IMG/VR virus record: IMGVR_UViG_2737471863_000001
Source: a virus
Taxonomy: Duplodnaviria; Heunggongvirae; Uroviricota; Caudoviricetes
Length of the DNA stretch: 33,695 nt
Reading direction: 5' to 3' (one strand)
In this document: one piece after another, positions 8,906 to 33,695 of the stretch
Numbering within the stretch: the first letter of the stretch is position 1
How the letters are laid out: each line of letters starts with the position of its first letter
Program-made: the position numbers and the translations under genes
Notes under the pieces: generated by a model
The model's input: the letters and a program-made list of their open reading frames with translations, nothing else
Databases searched by the model: none
Told to the model about the DNA's origin: nothing

Positions 8906-9966
8906 GTGGCCACCGCCTTTGTTTTCTTCGTCTTCGCTTTCATTTCCGGCATGTCCAGTGATTCTGGCGGAACCAGCGCCAGAACCGTCATCCGTCCCTG
9001 TGCGCCATCCGTCCAGGTCACCCCGGATATCAGCCAGGTGGTTTTCAGGTTCTGAATGCTGTCGTCGATATCGACAAGGCGGTTGGTCTGCCACAACGGG
9101 CCGCTGTCGCCCTGTTCGCGCCAGCCTGCCACCGTGATTTCCGTCGTGCGGGATTCCCCCAGCATCCGGGCTTTGTACCATTCCCCGCGAATGCTGGCCC
9201 CGCCCACGGTCAGGCTGTCTTCATTGACCAGAATGCGCGGGCGGTAACGGTTAATTTCCGGGTCTTCGGTGATGTACTGGCGACCGCCCACCATCGAGGC
9301 AGGCTGGCTGTCCCACAGTTTGCCACCGGCACTGGTGGTACCCTTGATGATGTACTGGCTGTTACGCTCCCGCCAGCTGAAGCGCCCACGGGCTGCGAGG
9401 ATATTTTTCCCCAGCACCAGTGACACACCCGCGCGAATGGAAGAGGCGCGGGTGATAATCAGGTTACCCGCCCCGTCAGACGTCAGCAGAACGCCGCGCT
9501 GTTTTGCCAGCCGGTCGAGCAGTTCAAAACCCGTTTCACCCTGTTCCAGAACGACGGACGCAAACGCCTCCCCGGTCGGGGTTTCCGTGATGACGGTTAT
9601 CCCGAACGGGCGGCAGACATCAGCCGCCACCTGTTCAAGCCGCACACCTTTCCATTTCCCGGACGAATGCACCACAGAGCAGTCAACCAGGTCGCCGGTT
9701 TTGTCGCGCCCCATGACGCGAATCTCCACGTTATCTGCGTCATAGCTGGGGATAAAATCATCGATATACCCCGTCAGCACGGTATCCGCGCCCAGCCTGA
9801 CCGTGCAGGGTTGCCCCTCACGAATTACGCGCGGTGCCGCTGCCGACCAGCGGGTTGTCACACTGAGATCAAACTCACCGGCAATCGCCTTCAGGGAACG
9901 ACTGACGGACATTTCCGTCCAGCCTTCCCACAGCTTGCCGTTAACGGTAAGAACAACAGATTCCAT
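8896..9966 (-). CDS. baseplate hub / tail protein (Mu Q/gp44-like, P2 gpD-like)
   Basis: 356 aa, ATG 9966 overlapping the P stop codon by one base. Confidence 0.7.
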   Translation of the reverse strand: MESVVLTVNGKLWEGWTEMSVSRSLKAIAGEFDLSVTTRWSAAAPRVIREGQPCTVRLGADTVLTGYIDDFIPSYDADNVEIRVMGRDKTGDLVDCSVVHSSGKWKGVRLEQVAADVCRPFGITVITETPTGEAFASVVLEQGETGFELLDRLAKQRGVLLTSDGAGNLIITRASSIRAGVSLVLGKNILAARGRFSWRERNSQYIIKGTTSAGGKLWDSQPASMVGGRQYITEDPEINRYRPRILVNEDSLTVGGASIRGEWYKARMLGESRTTEITVAGWREQGDSGPLWQTNRLVDIDDSIQNLKTTWLISGVTWTDGAQGRMTVLALVPPESLDMPEMKAKTKKTKAVATWD

Positions 9967-11240
9967 CAGTCGGTAATCTCCACAGGCTGCGTTGGCAGTA
10001 TGAATGACGGATGGCGCAGGCGGTTACGCTGCACGATTTCATCCCGTCGGCTGGTGTCACCATGTTCGCGCCATGCCAGCAATGCGGCAGATGTGGTTGT
10101 GGTCAGCATTACCTGTCGGGTTTCCGGCAGACGGGCGGCACGCTCGCGGGCATCCGTAATCACGGCCTGCCGTAAATCGCGCAGCGTTCGCCACAATGCC
10201 CGCTGGTTATTTTCCACCGCTGCCACCGCCTGCTCATGCAGTTCAGCTGCCAGCGTGTCACCGGCAGATAACGCCGCATCACTGGTATCGAACGTCATCG
10301 AGGCCACGGCATTTGCCTGTCCCAGCAGGGTTTCCAGCACAACCACCTGGCGGAAGTCGTCAATGTTCTTCTGCAGGCTGTCAGATACCGGCTGATAACC
10401 CGGTGACAGCCCGATAGCAAAGCCGGGTTTGCCGTCTGCCACGCTGCCGGGCTTCACGGTGATATCTTCCGGCAGTGCGCCGGTGGCAACCTGTCGGGCG
10501 CGTTCTCCGGCCCACTGATTGCGTAATGTCGTGTAAACCGCCAGTGCTTCGGGTGGTTCCGTCACCAGATCAACCACGCCGTCGATGAACGAGGACAACT
10601 CACTGACCAGACGTCCCGGCGTGGCAATAATGGTTCCGGCCATCTCCTTAAAATGGTTCAGCCTGTCCATCCACTGATTCAGTGCTGCCGGTAGCGTGGG
10701 CAGGTTAGCCACAAGGTTTTCCATATCAGCCAGAAAGCTGTCGGCCATCTCACCCAGCCCGTCAAGTGCGCCGAACCAGTCGCCATCGTCGATGGCAGCT
10801 TTTACCGCATCAATGCCCGTCAGCACTTCCTGCTGCGTGTTATCCGCCGCAGACGGGAACAGGCGCTCGCCTGCCTCAAACACTTCAAAGGTGACATACG
10901 CAATGCCGTCTTCCTCCGTGCTGAGGCGATGGGTGACCTTGCCAACCTGTACGGTCTGTATCCCGAACCACGGGTGGATAAGCTCGCCGGGGCCGGGAGT
11001 ATTAAGCGCGTCTAAAAGGGCGTTTAAATCATCCTGGAAGTTTTTACCTGGCAGCTTTGCGTTAATCTGCTGTTGCCCCGGAACAGCCCCGTTATCATCC
11101 GTCCAGGCGGTTTCGCGCCGGGGATACGCGCGGGGAATCGCTCTGCGGCCACCGGTGCCTTCTGTATCCACCAGAAAGAAGGGAACGCCGCGAAACGAGG
11201 CATCGCGCAGCCCGTCCCATTTGCCTTTGCTCGTTGTCAT
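9966..11240 (-). CDS. tail/DNA circularisation protein (Mu P/gp43-like)
   Basis: 424 aa, ATG 11240 overlapping the tape-measure stop (TAATG). Confidence 0.7.
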   Translation of the reverse strand: MTTSKGKWDGLRDASFRGVPFFLVDTEGTGGRRAIPRAYPRRETAWTDDNGAVPGQQQINAKLPGKNFQDDLNALLDALNTPGPGELIHPWFGIQTVQVGKVTHRLSTEEDGIAYVTFEVFEAGERLFPSAADNTQQEVLTGIDAVKAAIDDGDWFGALDGLGEMADSFLADMENLVANLPTLPAALNQWMDRLNHFKEMAGTIIATPGRLVSELSSFIDGVVDLVTEPPEALAVYTTLRNQWAGERARQVATGALPEDITVKPGSVADGKPGFAIGLSPGYQPVSDSLQKNIDDFRQVVVLETLLGQANAVASMTFDTSDAALSAGDTLAAELHEQAVAAVENNQRALWRTLRDLRQAVITDARERAARLPETRQVMLTTTTSAALLAWREHGDTSRRDEIVQRNRLRHPSFILPTQPVEITD

Positions 11241-13033
11241 TACCCTTGCTCCACGCTGGTGACGCCAGCCTGCGCACTGAGTCTGACGCCGGGTTGATCC
11301 ACTCTGACACTTTTCACGCGGGCGTCACCTTCCACCACCACACGGATTTCCCCCTGCAACTGCTGCGGCACGAATGGCGCATTCTGCGTGGATTGCAGAA
11401 CATCCCACGGAGACGGTGCGGCGATGTTCTTTTTCTCCAGAGAGTTAAACCAGTTCTTGATATCCGTCCATACCGTCGGGCGGTTGTTGTTTTCCTGAAC
11501 CCGTGCGATTAGCGCATCAGCTTCCTCTTTGTTCTTTGGGAAAGCCGAGAGCACCATGTCAAGGAGATTAAATCCTGATGCCGTTTGTGGTGTAACCAGC
11601 GCTGGCGTCTTTGGCCCACGTGGGTTGCGGGAGTTGCGGGGATTGCGCGATGAATCCGGCGCATCCGGCAGACCGCCGGTATTACCATTCATCCCGCCAC
11701 TGCCCATATTAACCACATAAACCGGCATCACACCGGAGCCGAAAACATCTGTAATGCCACCGGGTATTCCTTTGCCTTTCCCTTTGGGATTCATGATGTC
11801 GTGGATGGTTTTACCGAACCTGTACGTCTTACGCACGGCGATAATGCCACCCAGCGCAATTGCCATATATTTACCGACCTGTAACCAGTTCTGGACGGTG
11901 TTCTGGTCAACGCTGTTGAGTGCATCGGCCAGTTCCTGAACGGGTTTTGCCAGTTGCCCTTCAGCAAAACGTTGCCATTCGTTATTCAGTGACTGCATCG
12001 CGGCATTAAAGCCTTCAGCATTGGTTTGTGCGGCCTTTTGCGTGGAACCCAGTTCAATCGTGCCGTAAATCATTTGTTCCATCAGTTGCCGGTTTTCAGG
12101 GTTAAGCAGCGCCTTAATCCCCTGCATTCCGGTCAGATCAAACACATCCTGAAGTTTCAGCGGGTCGTTTTTGGCCCGTTTAAGGATTTCCATCATCAGT
12201 TCATAAGGCTTTTTGATGTTTTTTGTCCCTTTGACAAAAACATCAATGCCGTTTTTTTTCAGAAACTCGATGTTCTTTTTGTCCGACAGGGAGGCATACA
12301 TGGCCTGAATACTGGTTACCGTCTCATCAATGCTGCCTTTATTTTTGGCGAACACCTGAGCAAATGCCCCCATCTGGGCAATGGCTTCCGGTCCCTGATC
12401 CTGAATGATGGAAAACAGTTTCGGGGCAACGCGGGCAACATCAGCAACACTCACAGACCCCACAGCGAACTGCGCATACAACCTGTCCATTATGTTACTG
12501 ACCGCATCAGATCCCCGGATGTTTTTTTCCCAGAACTGCGCCATCAGCCCGGCAGCAACCTGTCCGTCAACACCGAACGCCTGCATCATCAGCCCCATGT
12601 TGCGGAGGTTGTCCACCACATACTGATAATCACCGGTTTTTCCCAGAAGTTCGCTGGCCCCCTGACCAAGCGCAGAGGCATCAATACGAATATCTTTCTG
12701 GTTCGACACATCCCTGATTTTGTCGTGAAGCGTCTTTACCTGTTCAGTGGTTAACTGGGCATCCGTCCCCATCCGGCGCATCTGCGCATCAAAATCGGCA
12801 ACCTGTTTGATGGTAATGCTACTGCCAAGCCCGGCTATCATTGCCGTGTAGCGGTTACCCAGCACGTCAAGACTGCGCCCGGCGGCCTCCGTTGTGGCTT
12901 TGACCAGGCGCATGGCCTTCTGATGGTTCCGGGCGAACTGCGACATGTTTGCGCCGTACTGCCGGGCTTTGGCGGTCAGGTTCCCGGCAAGGTTGATCAT
13001 GATTTCCGTGCTGAGACGGTTACCTGTTGCCAT
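11240..13033 (-). CDS. tail tape measure protein (Mu N-like)
   Basis: 597 aa, Ala/Gln/Gly-rich and largely alpha-helical in composition; lies between chaperone and baseplate genes. Confidence 0.8.
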   Translation of the reverse strand: MATGNRLSTEIMINLAGNLTAKARQYGANMSQFARNHQKAMRLVKATTEAAGRSLDVLGNRYTAMIAGLGSSITIKQVADFDAQMRRMGTDAQLTTEQVKTLHDKIRDVSNQKDIRIDASALGQGASELLGKTGDYQYVVDNLRNMGLMMQAFGVDGQVAAGLMAQFWEKNIRGSDAVSNIMDRLYAQFAVGSVSVADVARVAPKLFSIIQDQGPEAIAQMGAFAQVFAKNKGSIDETVTSIQAMYASLSDKKNIEFLKKNGIDVFVKGTKNIKKPYELMMEILKRAKNDPLKLQDVFDLTGMQGIKALLNPENRQLMEQMIYGTIELGSTQKAAQTNAEGFNAAMQSLNNEWQRFAEGQLAKPVQELADALNSVDQNTVQNWLQVGKYMAIALGGIIAVRKTYRFGKTIHDIMNPKGKGKGIPGGITDVFGSGVMPVYVVNMGSGGMNGNTGGLPDAPDSSRNPRNSRNPRGPKTPALVTPQTASGFNLLDMVLSAFPKNKEEADALIARVQENNNRPTVWTDIKNWFNSLEKKNIAAPSPWDVLQSTQNAPFVPQQLQGEIRVVVEGDARVKSVRVDQPGVRLSAQAGVTSVEQG

Positions 13034-13229
13034 GCTGTTTCTCCAGTTGCTTTATCAGGCGGAACAGCTGCCGCAGGGGCAGCTGTTCCAGGTACTGAAT
13101 GCTGAACCGCTGAGACAGGTTAACCAGCAGGTTCATCAGTGCCGCCGCCAGCGGCATCAGTTCGCCCCCGCGTTGCCACCTCCTCAAGCATTTCATCCAG
13201 CGCAGCAGCTTTGGTGCTGATAAGCTCAA
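13020..13229 (-). CDS. overlapping extension ORF of the tail assembly chaperone, reachable by a -2 (equivalently +1) ribosomal frameshift
   Basis: ORF in codon phase 2 overlaps the 3' end of the chaperone (phase 0) and ends 13 nt inside the tape-measure gene; G-run CGGGGGCGA at 13162-13170 allows tRNA-Gly to re-pair GGG to GGG two bases back. Confidence 0.45.
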   Translation of the reverse strand: MSLSAPKLLRWMKCLRRWQRGGELMPLAAALMNLLVNLSQRFSIQYLEQLPLRQLFRLIKQLEKQHGNR

Positions 13230-13515
13230 GGTCTGCCGGGTGGAGCATTCGCAGCTGTTTCATGTCCAGCGGACCGGGGATATTGCCGATGGCCGCAACC
13301 TGACGGCGCATCATCTCCAGCCCCATCAGCACTTCAGAGCAGTAGGCCACCGCCTTTCCGTTCCCGCCCATGACGACGCGTTCTGCGGCCAGTTGTGCAT
13401 CAATCACATCACTGGCGGTCAGTTCGCGCAGCTTCACGGTTTTATGCAGGGTTTCATCTGCCGTGCCTTTGCCGGTCAGAAGCCCGTGTTTCAGTTCAAA
13501 TTCCATTTCAGCCAT
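13120..13515 (-). CDS. tail assembly chaperone (short product)
   Basis: 131 aa, ATG 13515; sits between tube and tape measure genes, the conserved chaperone position. Confidence 0.6.
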   Translation of the reverse strand: MAEMEFELKHGLLTGKGTADETLHKTVKLRELTASDVIDAQLAAERVVMGGNGKAVAYCSEVLMGLEMMRRQVAAIGNIPGPLDMKQLRMLHPADLELISTKAAALDEMLEEVATRGRTDAAGGGTDEPAG

Positions 13516-13516
13516 G

Positions 13517-13873
13517 TCACACCTTCACGCATTTTTCACCGATAAAGTTCGCACTGATGGTGCCGGAATCCTCGTCCAGCTCCGCCGGGTTATCCGTGGC
13601 GGACCCCGTCATCATGTAGTTCAGGCCGTTGTCGCCGTAGAACATCACCGTGACGTCTTCCCAGCTGCTGATTTCAATCACGTCCATATCCGCTGCCGCT
13701 GCGATGGTCACCTTGATGGACGGCGAGGCCATCTTGCTGGAGATACCCCAGACCTTGCCGCCGCCCATATGCTGGGTGCGACTGAAGCCGCCCGGATTCA
13801 GCGTGGATTTCCCCTCGGTTTTAATTTCGCGGCCATTCACGCGAATGGTCGCCATGCCAAGAATTTTTGCCAT
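13517..13873 (-). CDS. tail tube protein (Mu M-like)
   Basis: 118 aa, ATG 13873 with AAGGGGG SD; directly follows the sheath gene. Confidence 0.75.
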   Translation of the reverse strand: MAKILGMATIRVNGREIKTEGKSTLNPGGFSRTQHMGGGKVWGISSKMASPSIKVTIAAAADMDVIEISSWEDVTVMFYGDNGLNYMMTGSATDNPAELDEDSGTISANFIGEKCVKV

Positions 13874-13882
13874 GCGGCCCCC

Positions 13883-15358
13883 TTAAAGTTTGAACTGAAT
13901 CAGGCCTGCCAGCACACGCAGCTGGTTCACCAGATTCGGGTGGCAGATAAAGTTCAGGCGGTTTTTATCACTGCTGTCGCGTGTCACCTGAAGCGTGTCC
14001 TTGTAATCGCTGAAGTTCTCCACAAGGCCCGCAGGAATAAGTTCGGTCTGGCAGATATCCAGCAGCTCTGCGGTGCACAGCTTCGGCGTCATCACCGGTT
14101 GCCCCGCATCCAGTGAGTCCAGCACGTCATCATCTGCCAGCTTGTGGCGCGGATAACGGTTCGTGAAACGGTTTTTGATGATGTAACGGATACGGCCCAG
14201 CGTGGCGGGGGACTGCACATCCAGGTACGACACATCCGCATCACCGTACTGGTTAACCCGGTACATGGTGATTTCACGCTCGATGCAGACGTTATCCCCG
14301 GCGTCCACCATGTGCGTGGCAATGCCGTCATGCAGCAGCAGGTTACGTTCCGGCATATCCCAGCGAACATTACGCGCAGGCGGCAGAATGCCGGTCAGGA
14401 CCAGCGTCTGAAGCGGACGCGCCGGGTCAATGGCAAGGTGATACGCTGCCGTTGCGCCGTATGACGCGGCCCACATCCACGCCGGGTGCGGTGACAGGTT
14501 GGTGCCGATACAGCTAATCAGCCAGTCATTGCGGGTTTCACCAAACGTGCCTGTCTCGCCGTGTGTGCCACGAAACGCCGTCCACAGCTGCGCCTCCATC
14601 ATTTTGAGCGGCCCCCAGCGGTTCAGCAGTTCATCACGCAGGGTGTTCAGGCTTTTCGTGTCGGTGAACGGGGCGATGATATCGGTAAACCACTCCGGGC
14701 CGATGGCCGCAACGGCCTCTGCCATTTCCGGTGTCCCGGTGCCGCCGGTAAACGCAGTTGCGGTCACCTTCACACCTGCCGGGAAGGCTTCACCGGTGTA
14801 GTAGTTCAGGCGAACGTCGGCACCGTTGCCGGTGACGCCGTGCCAGTTCACGGTCAGCTCCACGGTATCCGTGGCATCATCCTTCACCGCAGCGGCCACC
14901 TGCGTGGCAGGCTTTTTCGTCACCGCATCAGCAATGGCTTTTGCAATGTTTTCCTTCGTAGCCCCGGCGCTCACGCTCACCTGAACGGACACACCGTTAA
15001 TCAGCAGTGCCACCGTTCCGGCTTCAGTCGCTGTCCCCAGCACGGTCAGCGTGGCTTTTGCGGCCGCGCCTTCAGGCGCGGCAACCGGCATTGCCCAGGT
15101 TTCCGTATACGTGTTGGCACGACGCAGCATTTTGAGCATTTCAGCCAGCATCGACCCTTTGCCATAAAGCTGGTCTGCCTGGCTGTCACTGGTGATGCGG
15201 GTCAGTGACAGGGCGTCTGCGCTGCCGGACGATACCGCATGGCCCATGACCAGAATTTTTCGGCTTTGCGCGGATGCACCATCCAGCGCCTGTGAATTGT
15301 CGATATCGATCCAGACAAGCGGGACGCGGATATCATCAGGAATTGAACCCAGCGACAT
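13883..15358 (-). CDS. contractile tail sheath protein (Mu L-like)
   Basis: 491 aa, ATG 15358; size, composition and position typical of myovirus sheath. Confidence 0.85.
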   Translation of the reverse strand: MSLGSIPDDIRVPLVWIDIDNSQALDGASAQSRKILVMGHAVSSGSADALSLTRITSDSQADQLYGKGSMLAEMLKMLRRANTYTETWAMPVAAPEGAAAKATLTVLGTATEAGTVALLINGVSVQVSVSAGATKENIAKAIADAVTKKPATQVAAAVKDDATDTVELTVNWHGVTGNGADVRLNYYTGEAFPAGVKVTATAFTGGTGTPEMAEAVAAIGPEWFTDIIAPFTDTKSLNTLRDELLNRWGPLKMMEAQLWTAFRGTHGETGTFGETRNDWLISCIGTNLSPHPAWMWAASYGATAAYHLAIDPARPLQTLVLTGILPPARNVRWDMPERNLLLHDGIATHMVDAGDNVCIEREITMYRVNQYGDADVSYLDVQSPATLGRIRYIIKNRFTNRYPRHKLADDDVLDSLDAGQPVMTPKLCTAELLDICQTELIPAGLVENFSDYKDTLQVTRDSSDKNRLNFICHPNLVNQLRVLAGLIQFKL

Positions 15359-15543
15359 TATTTTTTCCCTCTGGTTTTGTTGTTATTTTTCGGAATTGTG
15401 GTTATTTCCACATCTCCCTCGGCTTCACGGCGCAGCCAGTAAGCGCAGACGTCGAGACGTTCCCCTTCCGGGGATAAATGCGCGCCATCCGGTTTACGGA
15501 CACGAACGCTTTCCCGCGCTGGCTTAATCAGTTTCTGTTCCAT
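15358..15543 (-). CDS. small virion-associated protein (Mu gp38-like)
   Basis: Start taken at ATG 15543 with GGGGTGA SD; alternative ATG at 15558. Stop overlaps the sheath start (TAATG). Confidence 0.4.
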   Translation of the reverse strand: MEQKLIKPARESVRVRKPDGAHLSPEGERLDVCAYWLRREAEGDVEITTIPKNNNKTRGKK

Positions 15544-16135
15544 CGTCACCCCGTACATGGATCACGTCGTTAATCTCAGTGTGTTCGCCGCTGCGCAGCG
15601 TTGCCCCGAGGCGCAGGAAGTCCGGGAGCGCGGCGAGATCAATCTCTTCATCCAGCCGGAATTCCTGCTCCCACGTTACCGCCCACATGGTGACACCCAG
15701 CCCGTCGAGGCTGACGGAGTAAATGTTGTCTGCCCGTACATCAGCAGCCATGCGTTCAGCCCCCATGCCCGCTGTGGCATCCGACGACAGCAGACGTTTG
15801 ATCACCTTTCCGGCCAGTACTTCACAGCGCACGTCGCGGGAATACCCCCACGAATCCGTCGCCATGATGTAAGCCACCCAGGTAACCAGACCGGACAGCC
15901 CACCGCGCGGGTTGATATCCCGGACACGCAGGGCAGCTACCCGGATACAGCCGGTGCGACCGGACATATAGCGTTTGACTTCCTCCGGGCTGTTAAACTG
16001 GCCGATGTGACGCTCCACCACATCAGCCCGGTCTGGGGTGTCCCCCTGAAGGACCGTTTGCAGCCAGGCCACAATGCGCTCTGCGGCCGCAACGGTGCTC
16101 CCCGGTGTGCGCAGTTCAGGGCGTTGTTCTGTCAT
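15524..16135 (-). CDS. Mu gp37-like virion protein
   Basis: 203 aa, ATG 16135 overlapping the upstream stop (ATGA). Confidence 0.5.
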   Translation of the reverse strand: MTEQRPELRTPGSTVAAAERIVAWLQTVLQGDTPDRADVVERHIGQFNSPEEVKRYMSGRTGCIRVAALRVRDINPRGGLSGLVTWVAYIMATDSWGYSRDVRCEVLAGKVIKRLLSSDATAGMGAERMAADVRADNIYSVSLDGLGVTMWAVTWEQEFRLDEEIDLAALPDFLRLGATLRSGEHTEINDVIHVRGDDGTETD

Positions 16136-16674
16136 GGCAGAACCTCCTTCCAGAAATGACTGATAACCTGTTGCAGCTCCTGCTGGTTGGCAGAAGACAG
16201 CCCCAGAAATTCACGTTGTGGAATGTTCATCATGCGGTTATGTGCGCCGACGGTCTGCCAGACCGGATATTTCAGCGCCCGCCCGAAACACTGCGAGATA
16301 AGCCGTTTGTGGGCGCTGACCGGCACACTGCCCGAAAAGCCGTCATTCATGATGCGGGCATAATCCAGCGGTGAACCGATACGCACCACGCGGTTTTCCA
16401 CGATGTACTGGATACTCTCCAGCAGATGGCCTTCACCGCGCAGCAGACTCTGGTTGCCGTGGCGGGTCTTTTTGTACCCGTCAGACCAGTCCGGCCAGCG
16501 TTCGCCACCCGGACTGGTTTTCTCATCGATGATGCGGCGGCGGGTCTGTGATTCCACCACCGCACCGATGCTTTCCAGCAGCTCTGCCTGCAATGAACCA
16601 TCTGCCAGTTTTTCAACGGCGCGGCGGATATCCTCCAGCCGCTGGTCACCGCTGACCTGTACAGAAATCCCCAT
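16132..16674 (-). CDS. virion morphogenesis / tail completion protein (Mu G-like, gpS family)
   Basis: Start at ATG 16674 (track opens at GTG 16677); overlaps the upstream stop. Confidence 0.5.
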   Translation of the reverse strand: MGISVQVSGDQRLEDIRRAVEKLADGSLQAELLESIGAVVESQTRRRIIDEKTSPGGERWPDWSDGYKKTRHGNQSLLRGEGHLLESIQYIVENRVVRIGSPLDYARIMNDGFSGSVPVSAHKRLISQCFGRALKYPVWQTVGAHNRMMNIPQREFLGLSSANQQELQQVISHFWKEVLP

Positions 16675-17111
16675 CACAGCACCCCTTTCAGGTTGTTACG
16701 GGTGAACAGCCGGGCATTGGCACCCACCACAATGATTTTCCCGTGGTCGGTTTCTGCCGGGGTGGCATACGTCGGCAGGCCCAGGTCACGGGTGCCGTTC
16801 GCCATCTCACGCAGGGTTTTAATGGCGTCGTCGTAGCGTTTCTGGATCAGCTCCGTGATTTGATTGTCACGCTCTGACAACCAGTAAAAAGCCAGCGATA
16901 CCGCCACGCGTTGCAGCGGGCGAGGGATTTCTGTCACCCCCAGCGGCAGCTGGTAGCGGCGGGACAGAAACGAATCAATTTCCGCTTCGGCATCACTGAT
17001 GGCCTGACAGATTTTGTCTTCATCCAGCCCGTTGGTTTCCCGGTTAATCGCCATGTTCCAGACAAGATTGCCGTCCGCGCGTAACAGGTCTTCCTGCGTG
17101 ATGTACCCCAT
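16674..17111 (-). CDS. Mu gp36-like head-tail joining protein
   Basis: 145 aa, ATG 17111 overlapping the upstream stop. Confidence 0.5.
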   Translation of the reverse strand: MGYITQEDLLRADGNLVWNMAINRETNGLDEDKICQAISDAEAEIDSFLSRRYQLPLGVTEIPRPLQRVAVSLAFYWLSERDNQITELIQKRYDDAIKTLREMANGTRDLGLPTYATPAETDHGKIIVVGANARLFTRNNLKGVL

Positions 17112-17422
17112 CAGCCTTTCTCCGCTTCCCGGACAATCAGATTCGGTTCAGCCATCAGGCGGGTGGCAACCGCAGCGGTCACCGCCACATCCTCACCGGC
17201 ATGTGACCAGAAACGACCACAGCGCCAGAACCCGTTTTCAGACACGGCCCTGACGTTCAGCCGGACAGTGGCGTCACCCTGTACAGTAACCGGGTCTTCA
17301 GCCGGACGTGGTTCATTCGCCTGACCGTCAGCCACAATAACGTCTGCCAGCGGTGCCGGGTTTTCCTGTGCTGCGCTGTTCTTTGCGGCTTTCGCGCCTT
17401 TGGTTCCTGCTTTTTCACTCAT
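17111..17422 (-). CDS. hypothetical protein between major capsid and gp36-like genes
   Basis: 103 aa, ATG 17422; Ala/Lys-rich N-terminus; no family recognised. Confidence 0.4.
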   Translation of the reverse strand: MSEKAGTKGAKAAKNSAAQENPAPLADVIVADGQANEPRPAEDPVTVQGDATVRLNVRAVSENGFWRCGRFWSHAGEDVAVTAAVATRLMAEPNLIVREAEKG

Positions 17423-17427
17423 GACTC

Positions 17428-17477
17428 TGCCTTTTAAAAGGCAGTTAAAAGGGCATTCACAGCACCTTTTAACTGCG
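17428..17477 (-). terminator. tandem hairpins immediately downstream of the major capsid gene (possible attenuator)
   Basis: Palindrome ctgccttttaaaaggcag (17428-17445) and 12-bp stem gcagttaaaagg / ccttttaactgc (17442-17453, 17466-17477) with 12-nt loop. Confidence 0.4.
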
Positions 17478-17493
17478 GTTTACGGATGACGGG

Positions 17494-18399
17494 TTATGCC
17501 GGGGTGGTGATGTACGGGCTGTCCACGATCTCCACATCCTTGTACCAGATGTTGGAATCGCCGCCGTTAACCAGCATGGCGTCAATAATGCGCTTCGCAG
17601 CCGCGCGGTTTTTCGGCCCCACCACAAGAGTGGTCGGGCGGATGCCCAGCGGCTCACCGTTGGTGCCCTTCATGCCCCGCAGCAACTCATTGGCTTTTTT
17701 GTAGTTCTCCACCGTCAGTGCTGCACGGGAACCGACGGCGGTCTGCCAGAAGCCGAAGCCCGCATTACAGCGACCGTCCACCCCGTACAGGAACTCGTGG
17801 TTCTTGAAGGTGTGCTCGCTGTTCAGATCGTCCAGGGCTTCAAATTTAAAGGCGCGTCGCGTCTGCCAGATGATGGGTTTCAGCACCTGCGACTCATCAA
17901 TCAGAAACCACGGTTCGCCCTGGTCCGTTCCTGGTGTACCGACAACGTTGCTGTAGGTGCCATCACCCAGCGGGTGGTCTTCATCAAAGAAGTTCTGGCC
18001 GTCAAAGCACAAAGTTTTGAATCCGGCACACAGCAGGGCGTAACACAGCTTGTCCGGGAACACGGCTGTCATACGTCCATAGCGTTCAGCAGTAATGCTG
18101 TACTGACCAATCTGGTCATCTTCAATGTGTTCGCGCTTAACGCGAATGGAACTTTCCCAGAGTTTGTTGGTGATGGTGTAACCATAACCGTCCAGCGTTG
18201 CCAGCTGACGCTCACCGACCCATTCTTTGATGTCCGGTAAATCTTTCATCCAGCCGTAGGTGTTGGAGGCTGACGAACTCGGCACCTCAGAAGCAATGCG
18301 ATTCCACTGCGGTTCGACACCACTCAGTCCACGGGTAAAGGCGGCGCTCAGGCAGGTGGTCAGTGCATGAAGGATTTCAGAACTGACAGTCTGTCCCAT
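17494..18399 (-). CDS. major capsid protein (Mu T-like)
   Basis: 301 aa, ATG 18399 overlapping the I stop (TAATG); position after protease/scaffold. Confidence 0.85.
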   Translation of the reverse strand: MGQTVSSEILHALTTCLSAAFTRGLSGVEPQWNRIASEVPSSSASNTYGWMKDLPDIKEWVGERQLATLDGYGYTITNKLWESSIRVKREHIEDDQIGQYSITAERYGRMTAVFPDKLCYALLCAGFKTLCFDGQNFFDEDHPLGDGTYSNVVGTPGTDQGEPWFLIDESQVLKPIIWQTRRAFKFEALDDLNSEHTFKNHEFLYGVDGRCNAGFGFWQTAVGSRAALTVENYKKANELLRGMKGTNGEPLGIRPTTLVVGPKNRAAAKRIIDAMLVNGGDSNIWYKDVEIVDSPYITTPA

Positions 18400-19361
18400 T
18401 AGTTGTTCTCCTGTTTTGGTTTAGCGGCGAGGAACTCTTCCCCGGTAATACCCATGCTGCGACACATCGCCAGTTCGGCGTCGGTCAGTGTCTGCGCGGG
18501 TTTATCCTTGCCCTGGCTGGGCTTGTCGTTGTTCACCAGCGGCTGTGTGCCTTTGGTGTATTCCGCAAACTGTTTGCGGCCTTCTTCCGTGCGGCAGGTG
18601 GCAAGGAACATGTCACGGTTTGCCGGGGCCACTTTTCCGGCTTCGATGGCCGCATCCACAAGCGCCCCGGCTTCCTTCTCTTCCAGTTGCTGAAGGCGTT
18701 TTTCTGCGGTTTCGGCACGGTTCAGTGCCAGATTGTGGGTTTCCACCGGCACAAACTTCGTCAGATCAGGTGTCTGTGCGCGGTTCAGCGCCACCTGTTC
18801 GTTCTCCTGAAGTTGTTTAATGGCAGCCACGGTATCGTCCACCGTAGCGGATTCAGCCAGCCCAAGCAGGCCGGTGATTTGCACAGGTACTGTCATCGGG
18901 TTTTTCTCCGTATTCAGTGCAGGAAAATCCAGGTTAGGTTTGTTGGTCAGCCCGACGCTGGACAGGCGCGTCACCACACCCTCCGCGTCATAGAAAAACG
19001 CCGGGCTGTAATAGCGGTAGCGACGCTCACTCAGCATCCAGCGGGCGTACTCGCTCCAGACAACACGGCCTTCAATGGTGCCGCCATCCGTCACCCGCAG
19101 TTCTTCCACCCAGCCATACGCCGGGGCTTCATCACCGCGTTGCCCTTTAATTTCGGTGGCATGTTCAATGTCCACCGGAATTTTGATGTCGGACGAACGG
19201 GCGATCACCTCATGCGGATTGCGGTTAATCCACGTCCGTCCATCGCGCCCGGTGAACTCACCCGCAGGGACGAGCTCAAGCCATTCCGGCAGTTGAGCAG
19301 GTGTCAGCTCAGGGATGGGTTCTGGCAGGGAAAAACACAGCGCCAGCAGTTCCGGTTGCAT
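18399..19361 (-). CDS. head maturation protease / scaffold protein (Mu I-like)
   Basis: 320 aa, ATG 19361; Glu/Ala-rich coiled-coil C-terminal half typical of scaffold. Confidence 0.75.
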   Translation of the reverse strand: MQPELLALCFSLPEPIPELTPAQLPEWLELVPAGEFTGRDGRTWINRNPHEVIARSSDIKIPVDIEHATEIKGQRGDEAPAYGWVEELRVTDGGTIEGRVVWSEYARWMLSERRYRYYSPAFFYDAEGVVTRLSSVGLTNKPNLDFPALNTEKNPMTVPVQITGLLGLAESATVDDTVAAIKQLQENEQVALNRAQTPDLTKFVPVETHNLALNRAETAEKRLQQLEEKEAGALVDAAIEAGKVAPANRDMFLATCRTEEGRKQFAEYTKGTQPLVNNDKPSQGKDKPAQTLTDAELAMCRSMGITGEEFLAAKPKQENN

Positions 19362-19410
19362 GTCAGTCTCCGTCGTTTGGGGTTACCGACGGTCAGTATG
19401 CGGAAGGCAG

Positions 19411-19436
19411 AAAAAAAGCCGGATTTACCGGCTTCA
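19411..19436 (-). terminator. rho-independent terminator (second of two after F)
   Basis: Minus strand reads AAGCCGG-TAAAT-CCGGCTT followed by TTTTTTT; identical to the copy at 27131-27156. Confidence 0.5.
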
Positions 19437-19523
19437 CTGAAAACAGGGAAATACCCCCTTCAAAACCCCTTCAAAAACGCCACAGCACCTTCAAAAAAGT
19501 CAGAATGCACATTCACGCCATCA

Positions 19524-19551
19524 GAATAAAAAACGCATTTCTGATGCGTTT
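19524..19551 (-). terminator. rho-independent terminator 24 nt after the F stop
   Basis: Stem aaacgcat / atgcgttt (19531-19538, 19544-19551), 5-nt loop, followed on the minus strand by UUUUUUAU. Confidence 0.45.
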
Positions 19552-19574
19552 CAGGGGGATTTACGGCGGGAGGG

Positions 19575-24746: not shown

Positions 24747-25051
24747 TAATTTTTTTCCTTTAACTCGTTCTCTAATAACAAATCACTGATGCGGGATACC
24801 TGGCGGATGGATGGCCCCAGCTCTTTGATTTCTCCCCGCAGGTTGCTGATATCCAGTTGCAGACGGTGGAACTCATCACGATCAGGTAGCTGATGTACCT
24901 GGCTTTCCATCACCGACACGCGGGAACGCAACAAATCAAACTCTTCGCGTTTGACGTACGTCTTCGCCAGAATCAACTGAAGCAGGTTTATTGCTGTCAT
25001 TAACAGCGCCCACAGAATGGGCCAGTTGGCTCTAATCATTTCCCAGGACAC
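24746..25051 (-). CDS. membrane-anchored coiled-coil protein, lysis accessory (spanin/releasin-like)
   Basis: Hydrophobic N-terminus WPILWALLMTAINLLQLILA then a charged helical region; start GTG 25051 (AGGAGG SD) or ATG 25039 (ATGA coupling). Confidence 0.45.
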   Translation of the reverse strand: MSWEMIRANWPILWALLMTAINLLQLILAKTYVKREEFDLLRSRVSVMESQVHQLPDRDEFHRLQLDISNLRGEIKELGPSIRQVSRISDLLLENELKEKN

Positions 25052-25263
25052 GTCTTCCTCCTGCGTTCCCGCATCTGCTGACAGTCAATACAGGTCACCA
25101 CATCCGGCAGCGCCGCAAGGCGCTGTACCGGAATAACGTTCCCGCAGTCATTGCAGAAGCCCCGACTGTGGGGCGCTTCTTTTGTCCGTATCTGCCAGGC
25201 TTTAACGACGCTCTGACGCTCGTTCAGAACCACTTCACTGATGCGGTCGATTTCGTCGGTCAT
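25036..25263 (-). CDS. TraR/DksA-family C4 zinc-finger protein
   Basis: 75 aa, ATG 25263 (ATGA overlap); CNDCGNVIP...VTCIDCQQ spacing matches the TraR/DksA zinc finger. Confidence 0.6.
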   Translation of the reverse strand: MTDEIDRISEVVLNERQSVVKAWQIRTKEAPHSRGFCNDCGNVIPVQRLAALPDVVTCIDCQQMRERRRKTCPGK

Positions 25264-25868: not shown

Positions 25869-26266
25869 GAATCCCCCTTATGAAAACGGCGCTGATGTTT
25901 ATAAAGTGCCGCGCAAAAAATACCGCCCAGCCAGAACGCCAGCTGATAAGGCTCCTTCAGATAAAGAATGCCGAATGTCAGCATGAAAAAACCAACGGCC
26001 CAGACCACCCATGACCACACGACAATTCGAAGGGAAGCGGCCCGGAAACGCCTTTTGGGTTGCAGGCGATAAGGTACGTTGCCCAGCTGGAAACTGTGAA
26101 TCAGACAGAGTGTCGCGCCGTATGCCAGCACCATGACCGCAAACGCCCGCCATCCGGCAAAACAGCTCGCCAGAAAAAGGACTGCCGACAGCCCCAGAAA
26201 CGACCACTGGCACAACATAAAGCGGGAGCAAATAACGCGAACAAAAAGACTATTCATTCTGTGCAT
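25856..26266 (-). CDS. small membrane protein with about four predicted TM helices (holin candidate)
   Basis: Start taken at internal ATG 26266 (AAGGAAA SD), about 136 aa; the 5' part of the track ORF overlaps the preceding gene and lacks an SD. Confidence 0.4.
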   Translation of the reverse strand: MHRMNSLFVRVICSRFMLCQWSFLGLSAVLFLASCFAGWRAFAVMVLAYGATLCLIHSFQLGNVPYRLQPKRRFRAASLRIVVWSWVVWAVGFFMLTFGILYLKEPYQLAFWLGGIFCAALYKHQRRFHKGDSWIR

Positions 26267-26477
26267 TGAGTTTTTCCTTGTACTTCTGGCACTGCCAGAA
26301 AATGTCCCGTGTATCCACGGCGTTCCAGCCACGCATGTAGTAGCTGGCGTGTGTGCCGTCATGGCCGGTATAGTCCAGCGGTTTCGGGGGCGGACCTCCG
26401 GCCATGCGGTGCAGAACCTCCTGACGCAGGCGGTCACGCCGCCCGGCTTTCAGTGAGGCATCCCAGCCTTTGCCCAT
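26250..26477 (-). CDS. hypothetical 75-aa protein directly after the endolysin
   Basis: ATG 26477 two nt after the lys stop, with GGGGGTGA SD; soluble, no family recognised. Confidence 0.35.
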   Translation of the reverse strand: MGKGWDASLKAGRRDRLRQEVLHRMAGGPPPKPLDYTGHDGTHASYYMRGWNAVDTRDIFWQCQKYKEKLNAQNE

Positions 26478-26478
26478 A

Positions 26479-27075
26479 TCACCCCCGCGTGGCGGACATG
26501 ATGCCCAGAGGGGTATCGATGATTTCCAGACAGGCGTCGGTCAGCTTTTCCATGCGGTTAAACCAGCCGTTCAGGTATTTGCCCTGGGCGGGTTTTGATT
26601 TGATGATGTCGGCATAAAAGCGGGAGCGACGGACAATACAGCGGGCCAGCAGCCAGTCAGGGGTGGACTGGCTCACGGCCTTGCGGGTACGCGGCCCGAT
26701 GATGCCGTCAGCATCCACATCAGCGGCTTCCTGCAAAAGTTTGATAGCCTTTTTAACGCCATGCTGAACCGCCGCATCAAACACAAAAAGCGCCACGCCA
26801 TCAGGCCACTGGTCACATCCGGCAGGCAGCCAGTAATCACGCAGGTAAATCTGTGCGGCCTGTTCGCGGGTTAAATCTTTGATGCGGGTATCCGGTTTAC
26901 CGTCACCGTTGACATCGGTTTTGCCGTCAATCACACCGTCGCGGCGGTCAGAAATGCCGTATTTGGTTTCGCCGCCACGGTCAGTGGAGTCATTGACATA
27001 GACGCCTTCGATATCGGGACGCAGAATGAAATTCAGCGCATGCTCAAAGGCCGGGGAGAATTTTTGATTTTCCAT
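26479..27075 (-). CDS. endolysin: GH108-type lysozyme domain with C-terminal peptidoglycan-binding domain, no N-terminal SAR/TM segment
   Basis: 198 aa, ATG 27075; hallmark IEGVYVNDSTDRGGETKYGIS of the GH108 family; no hydrophobic N-terminus. Confidence 0.8.
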   Translation of the reverse strand: MENQKFSPAFEHALNFILRPDIEGVYVNDSTDRGGETKYGISDRRDGVIDGKTDVNGDGKPDTRIKDLTREQAAQIYLRDYWLPAGCDQWPDGVALFVFDAAVQHGVKKAIKLLQEAADVDADGIIGPRTRKAVSQSTPDWLLARCIVRRSRFYADIIKSKPAQGKYLNGWFNRMEKLTDACLEIIDTPLGIMSATRG

Positions 27076-27130
27076 AAAAACACCTGTGAAGCAGAGTTAA
27101 ACGTGGTCTGCTTCATGGTGCCGGAGGCAT

Positions 27131-27156
27131 AAAAAAAGCCGGATTTACCGGCTTCA
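27131..27156 (-). terminator. rho-independent terminator between the Mor/C gene and lys
   Basis: Same 26-nt element as 19411-19436; begins 5 nt after the Mor/C stop (27161). Confidence 0.55.
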
Positions 27157-27160
27157 TTGA

Positions 27161-27610
27161 TTAAGGGCGTCGTGGCGGACGACGAACGGGGTGAGGCAGG
27201 TTCGGGGAGGGGTAAAACAAATCCGGCTGGTATTTATTGCGCTCCAGACGTCGCATCCGTTTGATGGCCTTGTAGACGGTTTTATACGTCACTCCGTAAC
27301 GCTGAACCAGTTCAGGAATATTATGGCCGTTAAAATCACGCCAGATACGCATATCCCGGACAAGATTCTCCAGAATATTCCCCCTCGGAACATAAACCTG
27401 CATCCCGCCGATATGGCGACAAATCGCCACAACCAGCTCAAGGGAATGAGCAGGGTCTGCGCCAATCCGGGCCAGCTCTTTACGCAGCAGTGCGTTCAGT
27501 TCAGAAAGTAACGCCGGATAAGCGGTGTTTTCCTGGTAATCATGAAGATATTCCAGAACGCTGTCGTCCCGGAGGTCTTCGAATAAATCCTGCTCTTTCA
27601 TCTGTTTCAT
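27161..27610 (-). CDS. Mor/C-family transcription activator (cannot say whether Mor or C orthologue)
   Basis: 149 aa, ATG 27610 overlapping the gemA stop (ATGA); N-terminal acidic region and C-terminal HTH VYKAIKRMRRLE; sits between gemA and lys. Confidence 0.7.
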   Translation of the reverse strand: MKQMKEQDLFEDLRDDSVLEYLHDYQENTAYPALLSELNALLRKELARIGADPAHSLELVVAICRHIGGMQVYVPRGNILENLVRDMRIWRDFNGHNIPELVQRYGVTYKTVYKAIKRMRRLERNKYQPDLFYPSPNLPHPVRRPPRRP

Positions 27611-28158
27611 ACAGCAATTCTCCCGCTGTTTCGTGCGCGGGCATACGCACTGGTCAGTGCATCATAGCCGCGCAGTTCCCGCCCGGATGGGCTTACAGGT
27701 AAAGGCACACCATGTCGGGCAAAGGCTTCACGGATGCAGCGCATGTGCCACTGTTTGAGCGTTTCGAGCACAACCTGCAACGATTCCCCGTGACACCATG
27801 CCAGCGTGGAAACACCCTGACCGCCATTACGTCTGGCCGTCAGGCGTTCAACGTATTTGTCCAGCGCGGCGTCGCTGATATCGGATACGAAACCATCAAG
27901 AAACATCTGCTGCCAGATTTTATAAATCTTCTCGCGCGGTGTGACATGCCCCTTAAAGCGACGGCGGGGATGTTTATTCTGCTTTTTAAAACCGCGCTCT
28001 TTCATGGCATCGAGCACTTGTTCCAGTTGTGCAACGGACAGCTCGCGGCAACTGGTTTTGCCCGTGCACTGCACCAGAAAGGCGCGGTAAGTGTCATCGT
28101 CGAGGTGCAACTCCCGGCGGGCAACATGAATTAATTTAATCAGGGATGTGCGACTCAT
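27607..28158 (-). CDS. gemA: GemA-like protein (Mu gp16 family)
   Basis: Start taken at ATG 28158 (AAGGAGA SD), 183 aa; N-terminus MSRTSLIKLIHVARRELHLDDDTYRAF is characteristic of the gp16/GemA family. Confidence 0.6.
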   Translation of the reverse strand: MSRTSLIKLIHVARRELHLDDDTYRAFLVQCTGKTSCRELSVAQLEQVLDAMKERGFKKQNKHPRRRFKGHVTPREKIYKIWQQMFLDGFVSDISDAALDKYVERLTARRNGGQGVSTLAWCHGESLQVVLETLKQWHMRCIREAFARHGVPLPVSPSGRELRGYDALTSAYARARNSGRIAV

Positions 28159-31706: not shown

Positions 31707-33695
31707 TTAAATGGCTTTTTTACGTCTGTTCTGTTCCAGAATATCCAGCGAATGATTCAGATATTCATCACGATCAGTTTCATATTCCTCATCGGGTTCC
31801 TGGTATTTCACCTGCACCGTGTTACCGGAAGGCCGGAAAATACCAACAACTCTTGATTCTGGTGCTGCTGGTTCGGCTATCTGCGGCAGCAGTTCAGCAA
31901 CTTCCAGCGCGTCCATTTGTTTCTGCGCCTTAATGGCTGCTTTAGTTGCAGATTTCAGTTGTTTCTGGCGGCGGCGATATTCACGGCCTGCCGCAGCATC
32001 ATTAAACGCAACAGGTGCCAGACATTCCGCTTCACAGATAAACCGACCGTCCAGGGTGTAGCAATAAACCGTGCTGTGTAGCTGCTGCGGATCAAATCTG
32101 ACCACAACTTTTTTCACGCCGGCATTCATTAACGCCATGTTGTAATAAACGTTTTTTGCACCTTTAAGGGAGCCGCCAACTTTAAGCGTAAACTCGCCTT
32201 TGCGTGAAACGTTCACCGCCTCGGCAGGCAGCAACAGCATCCGTTTTTGTTCTTCGGTCGGCTTACGCACAATCGTTCTGGCGTATTCACGCTCAAAAAC
32301 GTCATCAAACGAAAGTTTGCCTCCGCACATTTCTGTTTCACGACCTGTTCTGGCATTGAACATCGCAACACCTTCAGCAAGGGTTTTCAGAAACAGCTCT
32401 GCATCAACAGCACGGTCGCCATAGTTATCAGGTTTTGCCTGCGGATTTGGCCCCGTATATGCGCCAGCCAGTGCCGGATGCTTATCAACGTATTCCTCAA
32501 GCCCACCAACACCGAAAGCACGTTCAACAGGTTTTGCCTGGCCCCAGCCTTTACCGGCAACAACGCTTGTCCAGTGCATTTTCGCGCCCATCAGTAAAAA
32601 CAGCCCCTTTGGATCGTCCTCTTTCACCTTAAAGCGGTAACGATTGGGCGCGCCCCCCGTCAGCCATTTATTCGCTGCACCACGGGTGTTATCGATGGTG
32701 ATGTGAAAATCCTCCGGGATGCCGTAGCGTGTCACCACATCCATGAACGAGAGGCGAATTGAATCGATGTTCTCGCTTACATCGCAGCGCCAGCCCAGAA
32801 TTTTTCGTGTTTTCACATCCTGCCAGAACCATGTTTTCGGGCGGATCACATCACCGTTAAACCAGCGTACAAAAACGTTATGCAGATAACCGTCGCCGTT
32901 GATCCACTGCATGGCGTCCAGGTGTTCCACAGTTCGCTGTTGTGCCGGTATCAGATGCATCAGTGCATGTTCACCTTCACGGCAGGCAACAACCATTGCC
33001 TCGTCCAGTTGCTGAATCCGGCGAAAGGCCGTGGCACGGGAGGGAATACTCCAGCCATGCTCGCGGGCTGCCAGTTCCAGACGCTCATAACATTTGCGGA
33101 AGGCGGGTTTTTCTGGTCGCAGATAATCTGCAATCAGAAACTGCCAGGCATCCTCGTCAAATTCACTTTTGTGAACGTTGCGACGGGATGCACCACGTCC
33201 ATCAACAAGCGCAGCCGCCCAGTCAGGCTTCGCAAACTTCTGTACCTGGTAATATTTGTCTCGCAAAGTGGATGCGCTGACCTGGTAATGTCCTGCAACG
33301 GTCGCAAATGCCGTTTTCGTTGAAACCCCCTGGTTCAGCATTTCGTCTGCAGCCTGAACCGCAGGCAACCATTTTTCAGCAAGTCTGCGCTGGGAATCGC
33401 TGGCGTTATCCCATTTGCTCCACAGTGCCTCACGATCATAATCATGGGCTTCCAGCGTGGGGCGGGCGATTTCAAAACGGCCCTGGCTTGTTTCAATACC
33501 TCCTTGTTGCAATAAAATTTCAGCACGTAATGCAACAGGAAATGATTTGATATTGAATTCAAATGATACACCTTTAGTACCTGTAACTTGCCTAAACACC
33601 CAGCCTTCTCTTTGTGCCTTACGTGTAATGTTAGTTGCTTGCTTTGGCAAACCAGCAAAACCAAGCAATTCTTTCGCTGTATACCACTCTTTCAT
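31707..33695 (-). CDS. A: MuA-type DDE transposase
   Basis: 662 aa; ATG is the last 3 nt of the window (cat 33693-33695); most of the protein matches recalled Mu A, N-terminal about 70 aa differ. Confidence 0.9.

Follow-up and report, generated by a model that had tools for sequence, protein, structure and literature searches.

Bacteriophage Mu controls its late genes with two paralogous activators, Mor and C, which were 37% identical in a pairwise comparison. Mor acts at the middle promoter Pm, Pm drives gp18–gp19–gp20–C, and C then activates four late promoters. Mu Mor does not activate the Mu late promoters (PMC4287176). In proteins of the Mor/C family, which are small (about 100-150 aa), the N-terminal half is acidic and the C-terminal half basic, with a helix-turn-helix at the C-terminus, and an invariant β-strand linker (GG..Y.P.G) joins the dimerisation domain to the helix-turn-helix domain (PMC2582627). 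QPDLF is a C-terminal clamp-binding motif that is required for MuC-dependent late transcription (PMC12867686).

The Mor site of Mu Pm, AGTAA-AGCCGG-TTAAT, lies at -51..-36 and the -10 hexamer, TATCCT, at -13..-8, with +1 at Mu 9224. This numbering was reconstructed from the primer coordinates in Table 1 of PMC4390567 plus the Mu sequence. The GC core of the Mor site, together with CCGGCTT and T7, also forms a terminator hairpin after mor.

Other transposable phages have one activator gene. B3, BcepMu, KS10, phiE255, Vibrio martha 12B12 and the Pseudomonas D3112-like phages carry one Mor/C gene by gemA, followed by late genes. In KS10, gemA and mor are followed directly by head genes (PMC2628397), and a 'late regulator Mor/C' has been treated as one core gene of transposable phages (PMC8705779). 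The locus described here belongs to a viral DNA of 33,695 nucleotides (IMG/VR record IMGVR_UViG_2737471863_000001), the whole of which was analysed and is called the window below. Like the phages just named, it has one Mor/C gene adjoining gemA, and then late genes (lysis). They differ from it in their activators (30-39% identical), in genomes that are less collinear with Mu, and in promoters that have so far not been linked to Mu Pm.

The Mor-type gene and its surroundings

Read on the minus strand, the window is a Mu-like prophage whose genes run from A, B, kil, gam, a gp11 homologue and gemA to the head, tail and com–mom genes (Table 1). Aligned over its whole length with a prophage in E. 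coli XJ34, it showed 98.07% identity, rising to 100% around the Mor-type gene. The XJ34 prophage is inserted in the efflux pump gene mdtO and has Mu-type ends and a 5-bp target duplication, AACGC. Beyond the window, the XJ34 copy contains only ner and the repressor gene on one side and about 190 bp without an ORF on the other. Its tail-fibre region (2157-6281 in the window) is annotated partly as pseudogenes.

The gemA homologue is annotated as 'gp16 family protein' in the XJ34 copy. Its stop overlaps the start of the Mor-type gene, and the gap between the Mor-type gene and lys is 85 bp. The homologue of Mu gp18, the first gene of the Mu middle operon, is downstream of lys in the same gene array. 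Mu gp19, gp20, C, Plys and the Mu-type lys are all absent from the prophage. A TraR/DksA-type C4 zinc-finger gene, with no match among Mu proteins, is also found in the lys operon.

Table 1. Features of the locus, with their counterparts in the XJ34 prophage, the relatives and Mu (positions are in the window unless a sequence handle is given)
Feature	Position	Strand	Remarks
Transposase gene A	31707-33695	minus	
gemA homologue (GemA family)	27607..28158	minus	Pfam GemA PF06252, E 1.4e-32; 82% identical to Mu GemA
Mor-type activator gene	27161..27610	minus	ATG start, 149 aa; Pfam Mor PF08765
C-terminal QPDLF and Pro/Arg-rich tail	27161-27229 (residues 127-149)	minus	
Predicted Mor-binding site AATGA-AGCCGG-TAAAT	27143..27158	minus	Positional homologue of Mu Pm site
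Hairpin/terminator of early (gemA–mor) transcript	27131..27155	minus	Overlaps Mor site, as in Mu
Candidate -10 hexamer CACCAT, lys promoter	27115..27120	minus	Mu-equivalent positions -13..-8; spacing identical to that of Mu TATCCT
Inverted repeat CACC-A-TGAAGCAGA ... TCTGCTTCA-CA-GGTG	27081..27120	minus	Left arm from -10 hexamer to +1
Endolysin gene lys (GH108 and PG_binding_3)	26479..27075	minus	Pfam; same position in 11/11 relatives
Mu gp18 homologue	26250..26477	minus	blastp 68% identity, E 3e-35; order kept in 11/11 relatives
TraR/DksA-type C4 zinc-finger gene	25036-25263	minus	Inside lys operon
Separate intrinsic terminator, end of lys-to-F operon	19530..19552	minus	Terminator scan; upstream of second module
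Second Mor-site/hairpin module AGTGA-AGCCGG-TAAAT and T7	19411..19438	minus	Between minor head protein gene F and I
Candidate -10 hexamer CATACT, I promoter	19395..19400	minus	Same distance from core; predicted start near 19387
Inverted repeat CCGTCG / CGACGG	19392-19387 / 19375-19370	minus	Overlaps gene I Shine-Dalgarno sequence
Head protease/scaffold gene I	18399..19361	minus	XJ34 annotation; proposed first gene of second late operon
com–mom genes	623..1463 (com 1278-1463, mom 623-1357)	minus	88.9% nucleotide identity to Mu com–mom
XJ34 prophage boundaries	L002 6313 and 41464		Mu-type ends, AACGC duplication
Small gene between mor and module, relatives	L004 2278-2775; L007 7768-8283; L008 10387-10872; L014 10417-10728; L016 8004-8492		
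Mu counterparts of inverted repeat	L001 9217-9250 and 10436-10486		Mu Plys judged by eye

The 149-aa protein matched the Pfam Mor profile with E 3.6e-30 and 104.6 bits (cut-off 24.9), covering profile positions 3-107 of 107. Its N-terminal half has a net charge of -6 and its C-terminal half one of +11, and helix-turn-helix profiles matched residues 94-121. An alignment with Mor, C and the relatives showed that the linker is present, with G68, G69, Y73, P75 and G77 invariant. The protein was 63% identical to Mu Mor and 32% to Mu C, which places it on the Mor side. Its recognition helix, TYKTVYKAIKRMRRL, resembles that of Mor (TFNTVYKAIRRMRRL) and is unlike that of C (SQPQIYQIIARQRKL). By these sequence comparisons and its position right after gemA, the protein is a Mor orthologue with a C-like QPDLF. 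This motif occupies residues 128-132, in a C-terminus that reads YQPDLF; Mu Mor has QPSLL. After QPDLF the protein ends in a 17-aa Pro/Arg-rich tail, which is lacking in Mu Mor and in the aligned relatives. An EQDLF is present in the N-terminus.

A second Mor/C locus was searched for with two methods. When Mu Mor, Mu C and the window protein were used as tblastn queries (E up to 100), the window returned one locus only, the next best match having E 0.4, and tblastn of the full XJ34 prophage found no second locus either. A profile HMM was then built from Mor, C and the relatives and run without filters, at maximum sensitivity, on six-frame segments of the 46-kb XJ34 stretch. It gave a single match with E 6.8e-72; the next had E 0.89. 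The region outside the window was judged on the 98%-identical XJ34 copy, not on the window's own source genome. The prophage thus has one Mor/C locus, in place of the two paralogous activators of Mu.

These results agreed with the initial annotation in most respects. It had described a single 149-aa Mor/C-type gene between gemA and lys with no second paralogue in the window, and the ORF, the Pfam match, the neighbours and the tblastn search confirmed this. Its suggestion that a second paralogue lies in the unseen left region was rejected, as only ner and the repressor gene lie outside in the XJ34 copy and no further homologue was detectable. It had also described Mu mor and C as consecutive; in Mu, gp18, gp19 and gp20 lie between them.

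Mor-type modules before lys and gene I

A terminator scan detected an intrinsic-terminator-like hairpin in the mor–lys gap, GAAGCCGG-taaat-CCGGCTT followed by a T run (T7), at 27155-27131, so that the Mor-type gene is followed by a terminator and then directly by lys, as had been noted at first. The full element, AATGA-AGCCGG-TAAAT-CCGGCTT-T7 (27158-27131), shares with Mu Pm the AGCCGG core, the TWAAT half-site, and CCGGCTT plus the T run, with the hairpin overlapping the site in both. Counted from the first A of AAGCCGG, a hexamer whose second base is A and whose sixth is T follows at 34 nt in both. In Mu, the matching element is the footprinted Mor site of Pm (PMC4390567, PMC4287176). The left half-site differs, being AATGA or AGTGA in the window and AGTAA in Mu. 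No sigma-70 consensus promoter was found in the mor–lys gap or in the F–I gap. Judged from sequence, the 'terminator' after mor is the homologue of the Mu middle promoter Pm. From this homology and the matching geometry, dyad binding near -43.5, a promoter without a -35 element and sigma-70 activation are predicted. The Mu-equivalent columns place the predicted lys transcript start near 27107, with a 32-nt leader.

The 26-nt core of this element, TGAAGCCGGTAAATCCGGCTTTTTTT, has exactly two copies in the window, one before lys and one before I (0 expected by chance). The second copy, at 19411-19436, lies in the 213-bp F–I gap, and the two modules were also found as a 42-nt repeat (D7) with 90% identity. 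A weight matrix was built from Mu and the relatives only, with the window's own sites excluded. It scored the lys module at 67.8 and the I module at 66.8, whereas the best other position on either strand scored -2.4 and the best of 20 shuffles -3.0. Neither mismatch patterns nor the weight matrix found further Mor-type promoters before the tail genes or com–mom. Extra matches in the 10438 region (minus strand) and at 5996-6041 (plus strand) were at shuffle level and had no -10 hexamer at the right distance. The latter, a weak match to the Mor-type element (ACCGGTTAATCCGG), lies opposite the tail-fibre region. The loose 11-mer AGCCGGTAAAT, with up to 2 mismatches, matched 26 times in the whole window, against 7.1 expected from dinucleotide shuffles; this excess may be a composition effect.

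In Mu, gene I is preceded by a C-dependent promoter with a C-type site, whereas the I promoter of the window carries a Mor-type site. No C-type site (TTAT-N5-6-ATAA) was found upstream of lys, I or com; lys and I carry the Mor-type element instead. Across 1-19400, the terminator scan gave no more matches than shuffled sequence, and no strong terminator from I to about 1580. Three direct repeats, TTTTGAAGG(G/T)G, are located at 19445-19500 (minus strand), just upstream of the second module. In the relatives and Mu, periodic TTTTTAAAC-like repeats are found at the matching place, beside the annotated strong gyrase site of Mu.

Relatives of the prophage were collected as ten loci from a one-genome-per-species scan, plus Klebsiella phage Kp4866-3 (11 in total). 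The ten loci are in Pluralibacter, Raoultella (2), Klebsiella (2), Serratia (2), Kluyvera and Brenneria (2). All 11 kept the first module, with -10 hexamers CAAAAT, CACTAT, CACAAT or CAATAT in the same columns. In eight relatives, a second module was present 7.7-9 kb downstream, with hexamers CATACT or CACACT, again in the same columns. Four of these eight second modules had no T run, yet kept the core, the spacing and the -10 hexamer, indicating that they are not simple terminators. Some of the stems in relatives also showed compensatory changes (AAACCGG/CCGGTTT, AAGGCGG/CCGCCTT), so the hairpin itself also seems to be selected.

The two elements might instead be terminators only, with late transcription coming from early read-through or from an activator outside the Mor/C family. 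Both copies were indeed called terminator-like, and the compensatory stem changes indicate selection on the hairpin. We regard this explanation as unlikely. The equivalent element in Mu is the footprinted Mor site cited above; the second-copy modules without a T run kept everything else; the I copy is dispensable for termination, given a separate terminator about 100 nt upstream of it; and neither gap offers a sigma-70 consensus promoter. Activation by Mor at both modules is the reading that we prefer. For annotation, a 'terminator' after mor would then mark a late promoter, and a lone Mor/C gene would not be a defect.

An inverted repeat lies at or just after the -10 hexamer of each module. 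Before lys, its right arm ends in the Shine-Dalgarno sequence of the gene, AGGTG. Of 19 modules, counting Mu Pm, 13 had an inverted repeat of at least 6 bp that begins immediately behind the -10 hexamer, and shuffles averaged 0.24. The right arm falls on the ribosome-binding site or beside it, and the sequence of the arms varies from promoter to promoter. The mapped +1 of Mu Pm is just past the left arm, so the left arm would be missing from RNA initiated at the promoter, and the hairpin would form in read-through RNA. The predicted accessibility of the ribosome-binding site was higher in promoter-initiated RNA for 18 of the 19 modules (mean 0.52 vs 0.35), a comparison that RNA length confounds; I-type promoters showed the effect clearly, lys-type promoters weakly. 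The repeat may mask translation on read-through transcripts only. T4 gene e (lysozyme) offers an analogy: it is masked translationally in early transcripts, by an inverted repeat that pairs the ribosome-binding site with sequence upstream of an activator-dependent start (PMC3014915). The T4 promoter type and activator are unrelated to those of the window.

Distribution of the single-activator layout

A single Mor-type gene was present in all 11 relatives, with no C within 10 kb on either side. Their gene order was the same throughout: gemA, mor, a gene for a small secreted or membrane protein (not in every relative), the module, the GH108 lys, gp18 and so on to gp25 and gp26. This C-less layout recurs in 11/11 relatives, in seven enterobacterial genera. 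The TraR/DksA-type gene is conserved in the lys operon of all of them. The gene between mor and the module, which is found in most relatives and absent from the window, is variable and moron-like. These small genes were considered as diverged activators and rejected, as they showed no Mor/C similarity and encode signal-peptide or membrane proteins. In the window, the mor frame stays open up to a stop codon 6 nt short of the hairpin.

Matches to the protein were present in 72 records of the phage collection, 14 with two Mor/C loci and 58 with one. All 14 two-locus records (Mu, D108, SfMu, PhiR68_1, Mu_3F6 and Yersinia Mu-like phages) belong to Mu's own genus only, Muvirus. The initial annotation had implied that a single activator is unusual. 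With 58 of 72 records having one, and the literature already treating Mor/C as a single gene, this did not hold. The single activator is the common state and Mu the exception; the case in the window is real but ordinary. What is added here is probably a concrete link, namely a close Mu relative that, from its sequence, has Pm-type promoters at its late genes.

C was at most 40% identical to its best matches outside the Mu-group records, and its distance from Mor was about the same (38-40%); the gain or loss of C would therefore not be resolved by a tree on 130 residues. The Mu C gene was present in 41 of 5426 complete E. coli genomes and the mor-plus-promoter segment in 46.

A proposed two-step cascade

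We consider it likely that a single Mor switches on the late operons directly, in a two-step cascade with no middle tier. Mor would come from the last gene of the early transcript, after gemA. The hairpin after mor would have two roles, as terminator of the early transcript and as DNA carrying the Mor site of an activator-dependent promoter without a -35 element. Mor would bind at about -43.5 and recruit sigma-70 RNA polymerase, as Mu Mor does at Pm. From two such promoters, the lysis/packaging operon (lys to F) and the head–tail operon (I onwards) would start, and the cascade would run from early genes to Mor to late genes without a C tier or C-type promoters. We infer binding and activation at the two modules, as well as the transcript starts and the extent of both operons.

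Two further features fit such a cascade: gp18, a Mu middle gene, sits inside the lys operon, and com–mom have lost the upstream C-binding site. It had been proposed at first that one activator serves both steps. The single activator stands, whereas a separate middle step is probably absent because a Mor-type module is directly before both lys and I. Compared with Mu, the promoter after mor does not lead into an operon that encodes C, as the prophage has no C gene; it leads into lys. With C, the window protein would share a presumed role as direct activator of the lysis and head operons, in addition to the family and the C-terminal QPDLF. It differs from C in identity and recognition helix, in the absence of TTAT-N5-6-ATAA sites from the window, and in having two promoters, none before the tail genes or com–mom, where C has four.

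Several observations count against the two-step cascade. In Mu itself, the late promoters do not respond to Mor. The proposed -10 hexamers are weak, especially CACCAT, and there are two modules versus four late promoters in Mu. The I promoter would have to read the tail genes over about 18 kb, and com–mom have no recognisable activator site. Because the repeated element makes a good terminator as well, termination may explain some of its conservation, and the compensatory changes favour selection on the hairpin over base-specific protein contacts at those positions. The left half-site also departs from that of Mu.

TraR/DksA-type proteins act on RNA polymerase. Mor might thus activate the lys operon only, in a 'middle-like' way, and a product of that operon, for example the TraR/DksA-type protein, might turn on the head–tail operon. 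The conservation of the TraR/DksA-family gene in the lys operon of all relatives speaks for this sequence of events. The I promoter has a Mor site and geometry of the lys type, which make a different activator unnecessary, and we consider this alternative quite improbable.

A defective Mu derivative, in which C and its neighbours were deleted and late genes are no longer properly expressed, would also be without C. It would account for the missing Mu gp19, gp20, C, Plys and Mu-type lys and for the partly pseudogenic tail-fibre region of XJ34. It is very hard to reconcile with a C-less layout and coherent modules in 11/11 relatives from seven genera, among them Kp4866-3, a genome submitted as that of a phage. 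Both ends are intact in the XJ34 copy, which has the 5-bp target duplication, and in E. coli the lineage is about as common (46/5426) as the Mu C gene (41/5426). The least probable alternative, a second Mor/C paralogue that is outside the window or too diverged to detect, draws on the window stopping at the transposase gene and on a flank examined only in the 98%-identical copy, and has against it that only ner and the repressor gene follow there and no ORF is found at the other end, that the profile HMM gave nothing better than E 0.89, and that lys, I and com have no C-type site upstream.

With direct activation by one Mor as the preferred reading, a close Mu relative appears to manage with one protein and Pm-type promoters, where Mu employs two proteins and two promoter types. 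It is a natural comparison for the best-studied phage activator cascade, as to what the C tier buys Mu in timing, and bears on whether Mor-type proteins can be full late activators and on how the Mor/C specificity split arose. More tentatively, and with doubts of our own, the Mu 'middle' promoter type may be the ancestral late promoter, and C may be an add-on of Mu's genus that split a Mor-driven lysis operon. C with its own terminator and C-type promoters would then be confined to Mu's genus. The Mor promoter could likewise be a four-in-one insulator, consisting of a terminator, an activator site, a weak -10 and a repeat that masks the ribosome-binding site on read-through RNA, and the QPDLF clamp motif could let a single activator couple late transcription to replication.

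The com–mom genes are C-dependent in Mu. In the window, their homology to Mu ends at the com start, and the C-binding site of Pmom has been replaced upstream. Neither a Mor-type nor a C-type site was found there; the only candidate for the latter, TTAT-N8-ATAA, had the wrong spacing. A GATC cluster is kept upstream of com (1464-1600, minus strand). An extended -10-like sequence, TGATTAAAT, at 1521-1513 is a candidate com–mom promoter element. The sequence GTGATTAAAT occurs twice upstream of com, at about 1595-1586 and at 1522-1513.
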